Shown here: positions 32,980 to 40,397 of the stretch, piece by piece
Numbering within the stretch: the stretch's first letter is position 1
Layout of the letters: every line of letters starts with the position of its first letter
Assembly: GCA_905188025.1 (NCBI GenBank)
Contig: CAJJKI010000007.1
Location: forward strand, 9,703-73,702
From: an uncultured Eubacteriales bacterium
Lineage (GTDB): Bacteria; Bacillota_I; Bacilli_A; RF39; UBA660
Length of the DNA stretch: 64,000 nt
Direction of reading: 5' to 3'
Notes under the pieces: generated by a model
Databases searched by the model: none
What the model saw: the letters and a program-made list of their open reading frames with translations, nothing else
What the model was told of the DNA's origin: nothing
Made by a program: the position numbers and the translations under genes

Positions 32980-32990
32980 AATCTTTTTTC
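32959..32990 (+). terminator. rho-independent terminator closing the polysaccharide operon
   Basis: Perfect 9 bp stem aagattcta/tagaatctt followed by tttttt; it overlaps the vanZ-like stop codon. Confidence 0.6.
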
Positions 32991-33059
32991 ATGTTAGTTG
33001 ACATATCTTAATGATTGTACTAAAATATAAACGGTTAACAAATTAAGGAGATGAATAAA

Positions 33060-33725
33060 ATGAATAATCAAAATCATTACAATGCTATATATTATGATAT
33101 ATTAGTAAAATCTTTCTTATCAGCAAGAGGCTATAATGCTACTGAAATAGATTTAAATTCAGAATATTTTGTTAGTGAATTTGCCAGTTGGATTAAAGAA
33201 AGAAGAAAGATGGGATTAGATTATTTGTCGTTTATTGAACCTTTAATAAACTTGAACAATACTAAAGAAATCATTGCAGAAATAGGCAAGGGAGAATCAG
33301 ATAGTCTTTTAAAAGATACTGATTCTATAATGATAACCCCATTTACTAAACATATAGAAAGAATTAAGCCTGAAACTTTAGTAGAAGGCTCTCTATGGAT
33401 AGAAAGAAGTCATCCATTAATCATTCGTGGTAATAAATCTACTGATATAAGTAAATGTAATATCCAAAGATTTATTACTCATAATCCATATTCTAAAGGT
33501 AATATTAGAAATTGGGAAACACTACATAATAGTGAAAAATATAATATAACAGTAGGTATTTATGGTAGTATCTTTGATAATGATATAGATGGCAAAATAA
33601 AAATGTTAAATCAACTAAAAGAAAAAATAAAAGATAATTGTTTTTATGAAAGAAATACTGATGTAAATGGAGTATATATGCATGTTATTTCAAGTAATCG
33701 CAAAATACTAAAACCACATTTTTAA
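33060..33725 (+). CDS. hypothetical protein; paralog of the C-terminal ~200 aa of the Fic protein at 38356..39633 ('domain X')
   Basis: AAGGAG RBS 9 nt before ATG 33060. Shared blocks with 38356: FASWIKE..DYLSFIE vs FLNWLEE..DYSAYLSFLD; PLIIRGNK..RFITHN vs PLIVPTSK..TFLTEN; GIYGSIFDNDIDGKIKMLNQLKE vs GAFGSTWDKDIDEKIKAIKYLKE. Confidence 0.55.
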   Translation: MNNQNHYNAIYYDILVKSFLSARGYNATEIDLNSEYFVSEFASWIKERRKMGLDYLSFIEPLINLNNTKEIIAEIGKGESDSLLKDTDSIMITPFTKHIERIKPETLVEGSLWIERSHPLIIRGNKSTDISKCNIQRFITHNPYSKGNIRNWETLHNSEKYNITVGIYGSIFDNDIDGKIKMLNQLKEKIKDNCFYERNTDVNGVYMHVISSNRKILKPHF

Positions 33726-33908
33726 TACTTAAAAGCAGGATTAACCGGTTCTTTGTCAAATAGTGGGCGCGGTTCCAAATAATGATAAAGAAATTTGAAT
33801 AAGTGAGTGCTAAAATGCACTTGCTTTTTTCGATTATGGACAAATTATTATTCAATTTAGATAAAAAAATATAAAATTTGAAAAAATAGTAAGAAAAAAA
33901 GATTTTAT

Positions 33909-35861
33909 ATGGTAAAATATAATTGTGTGGTGATGAAAATGAATAATCAAGAATTAACTTTATTGTCCGAAGGACAAATTTGGGGTAATAATAATGAATC
34001 TCAATTAGATGTAATGAAAAAATATGGAACTAAAGCTGCTATTACAGATTTATGTATTTTAACAGGCAGTTATTTATGTGAAGATACAGATTATAATATA
34101 GATGAGGATCGTTCTTTAACTGGTAGAACTAGTTGGTTTTGGGCTAAATCTGACGATGGTGATAATGATGTCCGCGCGGTCAGTGAGGGTGGTGGTAGGT
34201 GCTACAGATGTAGATGTATCCGCGATGGCGTTGTTCGCCCAGCTTTGCAATCTTCTGTAATCTTTTCCCAAATCTCCCCGAACAGAGTGAGGGGCTATAA
34301 CGATACTTTTGAAGTTGAATGTGGTGAATATCCTCAATATGCTGTTGATTCAGGAATGCAGAATATATTAGAAACAGAATATAATAGAGGAATGAATAAA
34401 ACAGGTAAAAGTTATACATTTGATTCAGTAAAATATGATGATTATGACACCGGATTTAAAGCGGTTACTTATGAAGAATATGAATATCAAGGTAAAAAAT
34501 ATATCCGCATAAGAGCTAATTCTGATTTTGGGGGTAATAGATTTAAACTTTCAAATGGAGTTGAATATAGAGATGGCGATTATGTATGGGTAGAAGTATC
34601 ACCAGTTAAGTGGTTAATTGATGATAGAACTGGGACTTTAATTTCTAAAAAAGGATTAGTTTCAGGAATTAGATTTCTTGATAGAAATCAAAATTATAAA
34701 GGTGATTTTGAAAGAACAGAAATGAAAGAATATCTTGATAGATATATGTCAAAGGATTTATTTCAAACTGTAACGTTGAAAAATATTGCTGACTTAACGC
34801 CAGAGGAAAAAGAAAAATTACAAAAAGAAAGAGAACAGCAAGAAAAAAGAAGAAATCCTTATGGTTTAAAGTTTGGGCAAGTTAGTGAAGAAGAAATAAT
34901 TAAAGGTGCAATAGAAAGTGGTGTAGCAGTATTCTTACATGGTCCTTCATCAGAAGGAAAATCTGCAAGGGTAAAACAAATAGATCCAACTTGTGAAATA
35001 ATTTATCTTCGTAATGCAACACCAGAAAGTTTGAATGGTAAAAGTGTTTATAATGGGGCAACAGGAGAAATGATAGATGTTCCTCCAACTTGGTTAAAAA
35101 AGTTACAAGAAAAATGTGAAAAAGAACCAGATAGGTACCATATTGTATTTTTGAATGAAATTACAAATGCACTACCTAGTATACAAGGTATAGCATTTAA
35201 TATAGTTTTAGATAGAGAAGTTAATGGCATTTGGAAATTACCAGATAATGCTAGAATAGTTGCAGCGGGAAATGATATGAAAGATTCACTAGCTGCAAAT
35301 CAATTAGCAGAACCATTATTTAATAGATTTGCTCATGTTTATATTAAAACAACAACTGAAAGTTGGTTAAAATGGGCAAGTGAAAATAATATACATCCTG
35401 CAATTTATTCTTATATTGCTTATAAGAAGGGTGAAACACTTAGAAGTAAATATGATGGTGAAAAACCTAATGCAGATCCAAGAAAGTGGGAAATGGCTTC
35501 TAAAATGCTATATGCTACAGGAAGTCCAGAGATGTTAAGGGCATTAGTAGGAGAAGATATTACAAGAGAATTCGTACAATTTTGTAATCAACAAGTTATA
35601 ACACTTGATGATGTTATTAATGGAACTTATACTGATAAAGATATACAAGCATTAAATACTGCTGAAAGATATGCTACAACTATGGGATTATCACAAGTAG
35701 ATGAAGATAATCTTGATAAAGTAAGAGGTTTTGTAACAGGGCTAGGTGCAGAATTTGGGGCAATTTTTGATGCTTTATGGACACATGGCGATGAGGAAAG
35801 ATTAGAAAGAATTGCAGAAGCAAAACTTGCTGATATGCCAAGAGGAGGTATAAGAAGATAA
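33909..35861 (+). CDS. fusion of a novel Cys-containing N-terminal domain (~330 aa) to a MoxR-like AAA_5 ATPase
   Basis: C-terminal half: Walker A LHGPSSEGKS, Walker B HIVFLNEIT, sensor-1 IVAAGND and an Arg finger FNRFAHV. The N-terminal half has no recognised match and includes GGGRCYRCRC in a locally GC-rich stretch. The likely true start is ATG 33933/33939 (tataat at -10, GGTG SD). Confidence 0.8.
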   Translation: MVKYNCVVMKMNNQELTLLSEGQIWGNNNESQLDVMKKYGTKAAITDLCILTGSYLCEDTDYNIDEDRSLTGRTSWFWAKSDDGDNDVRAVSEGGGRCYRCRCIRDGVVRPALQSSVIFSQISPNRVRGYNDTFEVECGEYPQYAVDSGMQNILETEYNRGMNKTGKSYTFDSVKYDDYDTGFKAVTYEEYEYQGKKYIRIRANSDFGGNRFKLSNGVEYRDGDYVWVEVSPVKWLIDDRTGTLISKKGLVSGIRFLDRNQNYKGDFERTEMKEYLDRYMSKDLFQTVTLKNIADLTPEEKEKLQKEREQQEKRRNPYGLKFGQVSEEEIIKGAIESGVAVFLHGPSSEGKSARVKQIDPTCEIIYLRNATPESLNGKSVYNGATGEMIDVPPTWLKKLQEKCEKEPDRYHIVFLNEITNALPSIQGIAFNIVLDREVNGIWKLPDNARIVAAGNDMKDSLAANQLAEPLFNRFAHVYIKTTTESWLKWASENNIHPAIYSYIAYKKGETLRSKYDGEKPNADPRKWEMASKMLYATGSPEMLRALVGEDITREFVQFCNQQVITLDDVINGTYTDKDIQALNTAERYATTMGLSQVDEDNLDKVRGFVTGLGAEFGAIFDALWTHGDEERLERIAEAKLADMPRGGIRR

Positions 35862-36253
35862 TGGAAAACAAAAGGGATATATTATTGTCATATATAAGAG
35901 CAAATGTTGCACCAGTATTAGTGGATTTTATATCTGGAAAAGATGTTAAAGGTGCGGTTGTAATACCTGCTAATATCGATAGTAAGGAATTAAATGGTCA
36001 TTATGATGGAATAGATTTTATGCCACCTAAATGGCTTAGTGAAATAACTGAAACCAATGAAAGTAAATTTTTAATAATAGATAAAATTGATTCTATTTCA
36101 AAGGAAGAACAACTAAAGTTTTGCGAATTGTTAGAACATAGAAAAATATCAACTTTTGAATTGCCAAAAAGTTGTGTGATAATTGTAACTGTTGATGAAA
36201 TTAATAAGGATAAAATAAACGAGGAAATATATTCATTAGTAGCACAAATATGA
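35861..36253 (+). CDS. small hypothetical protein (130 aa), middle gene of the AAA/vWA operon
   Basis: Its start overlaps the upstream stop (TAATG), which suggests translational coupling. No recognised motif. Confidence 0.55.
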   Translation: MENKRDILLSYIRANVAPVLVDFISGKDVKGAVVIPANIDSKELNGHYDGIDFMPPKWLSEITETNESKFLIIDKIDSISKEEQLKFCELLEHRKISTFELPKSCVIIVTVDEINKDKINEEIYSLVAQI

Positions 36254-36263
36254 GGTATAAATT

Positions 36264-39633: not shown

Positions 39634-39663
39634 AGATATGTATAACAGCATATCTTTTATTTA
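39632..39663 (+). terminator. terminator-like hairpin after the Fic gene
   Basis: 9 bp stem aaagatatg/catatcttt overlapping the stop codon, with a weak T tail. Confidence 0.45.
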
Positions 39664-39713
39664 ACCAACAAATTTTTGACATAAGCAAATAATAAATAAC
39701 CATATAATTTATT

Positions 39714-40076
39714 ATGAATAACAATGAAAGAATAAAAGAAACTACTATTGAAGATATCATATTTATAATCTATTATGGTATTATTACCTTATCATTAATA
39801 GCTAATCAAGTAGAAAGAAACTATTTAAAATATAAAGATCCTAAAGATAAAGAAAACTACCGTCTATTATTATATATCATATTTGGTACTGCTACATTAG
39901 TATATATTTATTATGCCTATAGTAGTTATCAAGATCTAAAAAATAGTTCTTCTGAAGCATACAATCTAAATAAATTATCTCTTATTGCTAGCATTTTAGT
40001 ATTAATCAGTGGTTTTATTTACTTATATATAATTACTAAAGATAAAAATATTTCAGTAGAATTAGCTTTTAATTAA
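39714..40076 (+). CDS. hypothetical membrane protein (3 TM)
   Basis: 120 aa hydrophobic ORF. No clear RBS. Confidence 0.4.
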   Translation: MNNNERIKETTIEDIIFIIYYGIITLSLIANQVERNYLKYKDPKDKENYRLLLYIIFGTATLVYIYYAYSSYQDLKNSSSEAYNLNKLSLIASILVLISGFIYLYIITKDKNISVELAFN

Positions 40077-40131
40077 CATAATTCTCCTTATTTTTCTATT
40101 TTAATATAATATAATGAAAAAGAGGTGATAT

Positions 40132-40242
40132 ATGACTAGTATAATAATCTCTCTAGGATATATTATCCTCTCGTTTATTTTATTTTTCTTCTTTGCCCTA
40201 ATCATTTTTTCCTTCTATTTTAAGATAAATTTGCCAAAATAA
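40132..40242 (+). CDS. 36 aa hydrophobic peptide MTSIIISLGYIILSFILFFFFALIIFSFYFKINLPK
   Basis: Very strong RBS aagaggtga 6 nt upstream, and a -10-like tataat motif. Below the ORF-track cutoff. Confidence 0.4.
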   Translation: MTSIIISLGYIILSFILFFFFALIIFSFYFKINLPK

Positions 40243-40397
40243 ATTTATCTTTTTCTTTATAATATTATTTTTTAAATAAATAATTCTAAGTTCTAATCCA
40301 TATATATCAACACTTTATCAGTTATTTACCAAAAATTGATAAATTTCTTAATAAAAATATAAAAATCTATGATATAATTATAAAGTAGAGGTGTGAC

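Follow-up and report, generated by a model that had tools for sequence, protein, structure and literature searches.

The strain-variable capsule (cps) loci of Gram-positive bacteria, such as the pneumococcal cps locus, bear scars of insertion sequences (IS) and undergo recombination in their conserved flanks. Here, we describe the boundary region of such a locus in a stretch of 64,000 nucleotides (nt) from an uncultured Eubacteriales bacterium (contig CAJJKI010000007.1), which we refer to as the window. The interval at 32990–40397 separates a polysaccharide biosynthesis operon ending with a VanZ gene from a block of genes for Wzz, a bacterial tyrosine kinase (BY-kinase), a phosphatase and an LCP protein. 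It contains a gene for a stand-alone protein domain of an unannotated family (domain X), a module of AAA ATPase and von Willebrand factor A (vWA) genes, a gene for a Fic domain fused to a second domain X (Fic-X), and a gene for a membrane protein of 120 amino acids (aa). The original prediction for this DNA was that one island of about 7 kb splits the capsule locus. We read the interval as a layered zone of accretion and decay between a strain-variable biosynthetic block and a conserved Wzz/kinase/phosphatase/LCP block, a reading to which we assign a probability of roughly 80%. The features are collected in Table 1, and the loci used for comparison are cited by L numbers.

The comparison within the species was based on ten human-gut metagenome contigs with 10-kb flanks, found among 307 index blocks carrying the exact Wzz sequence, with eight more being near-identical. 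All ten contigs show the gene order VanZ, X gene, Fic-X gene, 120-aa gene and Wzz, which contradicts a single insertion bordered at 32990 and 40397. In blastn alignments of the window with the other haplotypes, homology ends at 33730–33741 and restarts at 38292, and the strain-variable slot comprises only positions 33742–38291, between the two X-encoding genes. Close relatives are not distinguished by a genomic island that is present or absent as one unit. The biosynthetic block upstream of VanZ varies among strains in the manner of a serotype block, with differing gene sets in L001–L010. The nucleotide identity between strains is about 80% for the X gene (99% in L004 and L010), 73–86% for the Fic gene (99% in L010) and 83–93% for VanZ, and X and Fic alleles diverging by about 20% lie beside a core that differs by about 1%. 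The stand-alone X proteins of the conspecific contigs compared are 74–100% identical. There is no linkage between the X alleles, the Fic alleles, the serotype block and the slot cargo: L003 carries the biosynthetic genes of the window with a different cargo, L010 the cargo of the window with different biosynthetic genes, and L004 the X allele of the window with a different Fic allele. From these mosaic identities, we infer that turnover may proceed by homologous recombination in the conserved flanks.

The comparison was extended to 80 loci by scanning one genome per species, with mapping by tblastn; these loci come from metagenome-assembled genomes of uncultured gut Bacilli, 'Tenericutes' and 'Clostridium sp. 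CAG:914 / CAG:710'. The Fic gene and/or the membrane gene are present at the VanZ–Wzz junction in about ten related species (L011, L012, L013, L015, L016, L018, L019, L020, L021 and L023), indicating that they are long-standing residents rather than a recent insertion. Because VanZ and Wzz are contiguous in distant relatives and part of the interval varies between strains, the predicted interruption of the locus by variable DNA holds in outline, but not as a single unit. The VanZ–Wzz interval is a cargo site in other species as well. It holds genes for surface-like, flavodoxin-like (judged by eye) and collagen-like proteins in L015, a 703-aa protein in L012, a transposase-like open reading frame (ORF; by eye) in L014 and a GlyA-like protein (by eye) in L019. 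Small collagen-like proteins with G-x-y repeats were observed both in this hotspot (L015:8626–9201) and adjoining a distant domain-X homologue (L138:10241–10708), where the ORF matches phage tail-fibre PHROGs through its repeat.

We propose that the interval has been built up in three layers. The oldest residents would be the non-canonical Fic gene and the 120-aa membrane gene, located at the VanZ–Wzz junction across the genus. A lineage-specific layer would have been added by the fusion of X to Fic and by a second, stand-alone copy of X after VanZ, and a strain-specific layer would consist of the cargo exchanged in the slot between the two X-encoding genes. IS activity may bring in or rearrange this cargo, as suggested by the ISL3 end found at the breakpoint, by L005 and L006, which contain a fragment of IS605 OrfB, and by the IS3 element beside the other locus of the AAA/vWA module, while microhomology-mediated deletions may remove it. 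The haplotype of the window would then represent a decayed derivative, marked by a 5.1-kb deletion, two frameshifts in the vWA gene and an Asp-to-Asn exchange in the Walker B motif of the ATPase. Its cargo is mostly wreckage, and the genes for X, Fic-X and the membrane protein are the only intact ones.

The larger deletion is seen at the right end of the slot, where a relic of an S-adenosylmethionine (SAM) methyltransferase gene precedes the Fic gene. The 92-aa ORF in this relic clusters with a 238-aa Methyltransf_11/25 representative (P0246). In L146–L150, the methyltransferase gene lies directly upstream of a Fic allele that is 96.7% identical to that of the window, and is itself preceded by genes for a response regulator, a histidine kinase and an ABC_tran/FtsX transporter. 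In L147, the first part of the contig corresponds to the vWA gene at its 3' end (window 37561–37944, 96% identity) and is joined to this cassette up to Fic, which establishes a longer haplotype with the order X, IS end, AAA gene, 130-aa gene, metallopeptidase-vWA gene, response regulator, histidine kinase, ABC transporter, FtsX, methyltransferase and Fic. Compared with this haplotype, the window lacks 5.08 kb, from the response regulator gene into the methyltransferase gene, and the junction shows a 7-nt microhomology (TATATTG) at 37935–37941. Another deletion of 4.17 kb (window 34167–38340) is present in L004:4923–6434, where the first 74 codons of the AAA gene are fused in-frame via the 5' leader of Fic to the full-length Fic gene, coding for 503 aa.

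The AAA/vWA module extends over 33897–37844 of the window. Residues 329–617 of its 650-aa ATPase match phrog_1297 (5e-47) and are 27–32% identical to ATPases of N4-like and jumbo phages (32% for PA5oct) and to plasmid MoxR proteins. The protein has the Walker A motif GPSSEGKS and, in the window and in L010, the Walker B motif VFLNEI; no Pfam AAA model matched at E ≤ 0.01, and neither a PDB sequence match nor a close relative in IMG/VR was found. The N-terminal part of about 320 aa (33933–34900) yielded no match in Pfam, PHROG, PDB, phage or plasmid sequences; by eye, it shows WFW-x-S ... GVVRPAL-like motifs, which we take to be of the kind present in uncharacterised Firmicute surface/DUF families. 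The following 130-aa protein appears AAA-core-like on inspection, without a Walker A motif. As a rule, MoxR AAA+ ATPases act together with vWA partners (PMC9976466, PMC13036017). The vWA gene of the window is broken. It has lost one nucleotide near 36387 and another from the A7 run at 37122–37128, so that its domains are spread over three frames. DUF2201 is matched at 5e-14, and reconstruction across both frame changes gives a protein of 526 aa matching phrog_1314 (1e-68). Sequencing errors are ruled out as the cause, since L010, which was assembled independently, contains both frameshifts.

The same module occurs at 86–90% identity in a different chromosomal locus (L144, L145), where genes for an AMP-binding protein and an IS3 transposase come after it. 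In this copy, as pieced together across scaffold gaps, both frameshift sites are in frame, and the Walker B motif reads VFLDEI; for site 2, the reading is borne out by P0255 and P0264, two proteins of 422 aa. We therefore regard the window copy as carrying three derived, probably inactivating changes. The copy in L144:35–1966 has a lesion of its own: in the TYEEYEYQ segment of the AAA gene, a GAA codon has become TAA, and this nonsense mutation splits the gene into 184 + 379 aa. The module is mobile and decaying wherever it was seen, and its decay appears to be independent in different genomes; the AAA/vWA genes of this locus should not be counted as a functional system. The closest described arrangement is the gp24/gp25-type gene pair of phage N4, which shares the two families, their order and small ORFs between them (gp33/gp36 in phage JWAlpha). 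Unlike the phage pair, to which it is about 30% identical, the ATPase of the window has an additional N-terminal domain of about 320 aa and the D-to-N change in Walker B, and its vWA gene is twice frameshifted.

At the left edge of the slot, the window contains an ISL3 end in a single copy, which begins 5 nt from the breakpoint where homology between haplotypes ends (33741). Its minus strand retains the last six transposase codons (KKASAF-stop). L003, L004 and L146 carry the same end downstream of Fic, and L015, from another species, carries it downstream of VanZ. When metagenomes were scanned with the first 19 nt of this end, 45 stretches were retrieved (L093–L137); several of them lie close to contig ends, at a distance of about 100 nt, as is characteristic of multicopy repeats. 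In L104, L107, L118, L119, L122 and L128, an identical end of 19–21 nt adjoins transposase ORFs of 427–431 aa on the opposite strand, and the copy in L104 (element at 11433, minus strand) matches Zn_ribbon_ISL3, HTH_Tnp_ISL3 and DDE_Tnp_ISL3 (4e-50). The shared end, the residual transposase codons and the full copies together identify 33747–33829 as a solo end of an ISL3-family element. It is a remnant rather than a complete element: compared with other ISL3-family elements, just 83 nt of one end with the same terminal repeat are left, neither a second IS end nor a transposase gene was found in the window, and homology to the full copies stops after the hairpin, near 33830. A cassette-boundary recombination site, a small RNA or an IS200/IS605 end were also considered for the 83-nt repeat and are ruled out by the ISL3 transposase in the full copies. 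The ends of this multicopy IS of gut Bacilli share a conserved structure of two hairpins: the stem TTCTTTGTCA/TGATAAAGAA encloses a small hairpin, and next comes a terminator hairpin in which the stop codon of the transposase lies. Judged by eye, the small hairpin appears to covary between IS copies.

The two proteins framing the slot share domain X, which was correctly recognised in the original prediction: the stand-alone protein aligns with residues 224–424 of the Fic protein at 28% identity (E = 9e-23). It has no match in Pfam, NCBIfam, PADLOC or PHROG, 43 scanned family members gave no Pfam match besides Fic and no methyltransferase family, a profile search of domain X against PDB sequences gave no match, and word-indexed protein searches returned near relatives only. 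An exhaustive profile search revealed a family of 548 cluster representatives, nearly all of them stand-alone proteins of 205–230 aa and a few fused to Fic. Distant homologues (L138, L142) lie amid unannotated small genes and a large helicase gene, without Fic or cps genes, a context that is uninformative. An AlphaFold2 model of domain X from a 43-sequence alignment reached a predicted local distance difference test score (pLDDT) of 92.6 and a predicted template-modelling (TM) score of 0.88, whereas a 17-sequence alignment gave an unusable pLDDT of 54. Foldseek searches with the model against PDB and viral models returned almost only class I SAM methyltransferases, O-methyltransferases among them (E ~6e-4, TM-scores 0.43–0.45), with amino-methyltransferases as the top matches (METTL16/RlmF, TrmN6/TrmM, MnmM). 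ExGKG (77–81) and NPY (145–147) consist of invariant or near-invariant residues, each at the end of a predicted strand, and are reminiscent of motif I and motif IV (NPPY) in amino-methyltransferases. Unlike class I methyltransferases, domain X lacks the third glycine of motif I and has 'ITP' without an acidic residue after strand 2; with these low TM-scores and no sequence-level match to a Pfam family or PDB chain, we consider the predicted methyltransferase resemblance as a distant, fold-level lead, not as family membership.

The Fic part of the fusion protein scores above the curated cut-off of the Pfam model; its best matches among solved structures are the Fic domains of VbhT and Bep proteins (residues 23–185, E = 8e-8). 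Compared with these class I Fic AMP transferases, it has the core region of the Fic fold and the H-x-F-x-E-G-N motif in common, but its full motif is HAFSEGNTRT (HAFSEGNTRTVA) instead of H-P-F-x-[DE]-G-N-G-R-x-x-R (general form HxFx[DE]GNGRxxR), and domain X replaces the C-terminal BID/OB domains. The form H-x-F-x-[EDN]-G-N-T-R-T is kept in nine related loci, the G-to-T change and the loss of the last R thus being conserved. A VbhA-like antitoxin gene was not seen: there is no adjacent antitoxin-like gene, and the conserved DNA upstream of Fic amounts to merely 64 nt. Within the protein, an inhibitory [ST]xxxE[GN] helix was not seen either, and an N-terminal TRINEL-like segment is not conserved as a motif. 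In PADLOC-DB 2.0, the Fic protein matches the candidate single-gene models PDC-S72 (1e-52) and PDC-S04, and the other eight ORFs scanned had no meaningful match. The Fic gene is split into parts of 103 + 243 aa in L109, and such 243-aa fragments (P0021, P0022) form clusters of 8–12 sequences.

In its composition, the interval is indistinct from its surroundings. Its GC content is 28.4%, compared to 28.0% for the whole window, and the GC content at third codon positions (GC3) is 0.09–0.22, within or below the range of the flanking genes, with host-like values of 0.09–0.15 for the cassette genes. Of the two patches predicted to be the only GC-rich ones, 34150–34290 is indeed the richest 141-nt stretch of the window (51%), coding for a Gly/Arg/Cys/Val-rich core of the 650-aa protein within its N-terminal domain of about 320 aa, but the 32-nt patch at 33744–33775 is ordinary, since about 0.9% of same-size windows equal it and the maximum of the window is 69%; other 1-kb stretches are richer in GC, at 35–37%. 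An RNA element in the richest patch was considered and rejected, since 34140–34300 folds no better than shuffled sequences (z = +1.25) and is plain coding sequence. An Rfam scan of 32500–40500 gave only sub-threshold chance matches, such as an L20 leader over the IS end with 24.6 bits versus a gathering score of 58.7. Apart from AT-rich chance matches, direct repeats at 32990/40397 were not found, and integrase families are absent among the Pfam, PHROG and NCBIfam matches. The predicted contents of the interval, a domain-X gene, an AAA/vWA operon, a Fic gene and small ORFs, are all present, apart from the broken state of the vWA gene. Their labelling as defence genes has little to commend it, because only Fic matches a PADLOC candidate model and the AAA/vWA genes match none. 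The interval does have its own terminators, as predicted, with hairpins at 33801–33826 and 38237–38265. The picture most opposed to an island, in which relatives share an uninterrupted order of conserved genes of uniform composition, holds by half: there is no compositional difference and the frame genes are conserved, yet the gene order is neither identical nor uninterrupted across relatives.

Several explanations other than layered accretion and decay have to be weighed. A single mobile or defence island of about 7 kb, comprising X, AAA/vWA, Fic and small ORFs and present or absent as a unit between the halves of the capsule locus, would fit the adjacency of VanZ and Wzz in more distant relatives, the match of Fic to PDC-S72 and the promoter-like sites and terminators of the region. 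We consider it highly improbable in view of the frame genes present in ten of ten conspecific contigs with variation confined to the slot, the residence of Fic and the membrane gene at the junction in about ten related species, the uniform GC and GC3 without flanking repeats, and an interior that is itself a mosaic of three unrelated pieces. That the AAA/vWA module is still a working system, either anti-phage or a chaperone-like MoxR-vWA machine, which produces its vWA subunit by programmed frameshifting and uses the Walker-B Asn as a regulatory ATP-locked form, appears very unlikely. The identical lesions in two independent assemblies (window/L008 and L010), the lack of further stop codons in the downstream ORFs and the location in a hotspot beside a Fic defence-candidate gene would agree with it, and site 2 is a canonical slippery sequence followed by a stop four codons downstream. 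However, a slippery motif is lacking at site 1, and the next 186 nt contain no start codon, so the HExxH domain would stay untranslated; moreover, the copy elsewhere is in frame at both sites with a canonical VFLDEI, L004 has deleted most of the module, and its proteins have no PADLOC matches. A prophage remnant is slightly less improbable but still unlikely. It is favoured by the matches to phrog_1297 and phrog_1314 and the homology of the gene pair to N4-like gp24/gp25, but the identity to phage proteins is just 27–32%, no other phage genes, integrase or att sites were found at 33–40 kb, MoxR homologues occur equally on plasmids, close IMG/VR relatives are missing, and the second locus of the module is chromosomal, beside an IS3 element.

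The X and Fic-X genes, finally, might be functional parts of capsule regulation, for example with Fic modifying Wzz or the BY-kinase and the methyltransferase-like X acting as a sensor or partner, so that the interval would be an extended regulatory block with a cargo slot. The Fic gene with its conserved motif is located directly upstream of Wzz in many related species, both genes are kept in all ten conspecific contigs, and each has its own promoter-like site. Still, we regard this role as unlikely: several close relatives lack Fic (L015, L022, L024, L025), Fic is split in L109 with clustered fragments elsewhere, the allelic divergence of about 20% next to a 1%-divergent core resembles that of a conflict or accessory gene, distant X homologues occur in unrelated contexts without Fic or cps genes, and among the matches listed, no capsule, Wzz or tyrosine-kinase literature mentions 'Fic domain'. 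The loss in relatives, the pseudogene alleles and the allelic divergence favour X and Fic as conflict genes riding in a variable region. It is similarly unlikely, although conceivable, that X and Fic-X form an undescribed two-gene module, fixed yet rapidly diversifying within the variable part of the capsule loci of this gut lineage, as a toxin/immunity-like or phage-defence pair or as a modifier of Wzz or the BY-kinase; in both versions, stand-alone X would act as an antagonist or a mimic of its paralogous domain in Fic-X. Some points also weigh against layered accretion and decay itself. The comparison covers only metagenome assemblies, in which chimeric assembly across a repeat-rich hotspot is conceivable, though independent samples agree, and ten conspecific contigs were inspected directly versus 307 index blocks with the same Wzz. 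The three ISL3-end remnants (after X, Fic and VanZ) are truncated at the same point past the hairpin, for which independent decay offers no obvious explanation. L144 and L145 contain scaffold gaps (runs of N) in the metallopeptidase region, and their 'intact' gene was pieced together from two contigs. At site 2 (37116–37130), the sequence A_AAA_AAC is a canonical heptamer for −1 slippage, and the zero frame reaches a stop four codons further on, so partial expression by slippage is possible, although a homopolymer deletion is the simpler explanation because the sister alleles are A8 and in frame.

Table 1. Features of the interval and its flanks (window positions), cargo of the strain-variable slot, and arrangements of the VanZ–Wzz junction in related species
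Feature	Position or locus	Strand	Evidence or remark
Wzx/Wzy-type polysaccharide biosynthesis operon, tightly packed ORFs, last gene VanZ	21016–32979	+	Pfam
Terminator-like AT-rich hairpin and U-run, 3' of VanZ	32959–32990	+	−9 kcal/mol, z = −3.4, 0/200 shuffles as stable
Promoter-like site TTGACA-17-TAAAAT upstream of domain-X gene	32998–33026	+	11/12 matches; consensus match only
Stand-alone domain-X protein, 224 aa	33051–33725	+	221 aa with start at 33060
Solo terminal end of ISL3-family insertion sequence, 83 nt: inverted repeat GGTTCTTTGTCAAATAGTGGG, inverted-repeat stem, terminator hairpin	33747–33829	+	z = −4.6
650-aa protein, C-terminal half MoxR-type AAA+ ATPase	33909–35861	+	likely start 33933, as in 642-aa variants
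130-aa protein, start overlapping AAA stop codon by one base	35861–36253	+	kept with module in L144, L145
Pseudogene, metallopeptidase (HExxH) / S,Q-rich linker / DUF2201 vWA, N4 gp25-like	36264–37842	+	three ORF fragments
3' relic of 238-aa SAM-methyltransferase gene	37935–38231	+	contains 92-aa ORF 37953–38231
Terminator hairpin after methyltransferase relic	38237–38265		−10.8 kcal/mol, z = −4.2
Fic domain (residues 1–200) fused to domain X (residues ~205–425), 425 aa	38356–39633	+	Pfam Fic 8e-12
120-aa membrane protein (TM120), first gene of conserved right flank	39714–40076	+	96–100% nt identity between strains
Wzz (chain-length determinant), BY-kinase-like P-loop protein, CpsB/PHP phosphatase, LCP	40398–43919	+	96–99.7% nt identity, all conspecific contigs compared
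Slot cargo: Flg_new surface protein	L001, L005, L006		
Slot cargo: Ig-like/NlpC-P60 protein	L007, L009		
Slot cargo: deletion remnant of Ig-like/NlpC-P60 protein gene	L002		
Slot cargo: AAA/vWA set	L008, L010		L008 100% identical to window
Slot cargo: response regulator, histidine kinase, Bce-like ABC_tran/FtsX (685 aa), 238-aa SAM methyltransferase	L147:398–5756; L146, L148–L150		
VanZ - TM120 - short Fic - Wzz	L011, L016		
VanZ - short Fic - Wzz	L018, L023		
LCP (reverse strand) - short Fic - Wzz	L020, L021		
Fic fused to X	L013, L019		
Frameshifted stand-alone X	L014		
Fic absent	L015, L022, L024, L025		
VanZ directly before Wzz	L037, L054, L061, L070, L084		100–350 nt apart, more distant species

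The two blocks enclosing the interval, separated by a gap of about 7.4 kb, agree with the original prediction, both in the packed operon reaching to 32979 and in the genes for a chain-length regulator, BY-kinase, PHP phosphatase and LCP protein downstream of the gap. The products of the operon are a CapD-like Polysacc_synt_2 dehydratase, a DegT aminotransferase, a Bac_transf initiating sugar transferase, a GNAT protein, an ATP-grasp protein, a GT4 glycosyltransferase, an EpsG-type polymerase, a GT2 glycosyltransferase, a flippase, a hexapeptide acyltransferase and VanZ (32557–32979), for which an exact protein look-up gave no record. The hairpin following VanZ is significant, but it is AT-rich and does not really deserve the attribute 'strong' it had been given. 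On the right side, the 120-aa membrane protein carries a YidH/DUF202-like label from one source, and the conserved flank between its gene and Wzz contains a 36-aa hydrophobic ORF (MTSIIISLGYIILSFILFFFFALIIFSFYFKINLPK, 40132–40242), which may code for a small membrane peptide or for nothing. We also observed a second slot between Fic and the 120-aa gene, in which a two-gene cassette follows an ISL3 end (L003:6787–8665, L004:6821–8665, L099, L109, L110, L146:4235–6197). Its genes code for a guanylate-kinase-like P-loop protein of 174–179 aa and a 476-aa fusion of a CTP-synthase N-terminal (CTP_synth_N) domain with Ham1/ITPase, a nucleotide-metabolism flavour which suggests a possible conflict system.

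The picture of one defence island splitting a capsule locus is thereby corrected to one of accessory cargo that accumulates and decays at the edge of the locus, in an uncultured low-GC lineage of Bacilli from the human gut. We judge the interval to be an ordinary hotspot of recombination and decay, a known sort of genome variation, for which the sister haplotypes allow relative dating of the IS scar, the deletions of 5.1 and 4.2 kb, the frameshifts and the active-site substitution. The X/Fic pair is the sole mildly novel item, and only two leads deserve to be followed: the X family, which lacks annotation, and the fusion of X to an atypical Fic protein syntenic with Wzz. With cps loci of the pneumococcal type, the locus shares a variable block beside conserved genes for Wzz/CpsC, CpsD, CpsB and LCP/CpsA, the mosaic identity, the IS remnants at the boundary and a cargo unlinked to the flanks. 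Unlike in these loci, the regulatory genes of the window are located downstream, not upstream, of the biosynthetic block, and the two blocks enclose an extra slot for non-polysaccharide cargo, framed by two genes for X-domain proteins.

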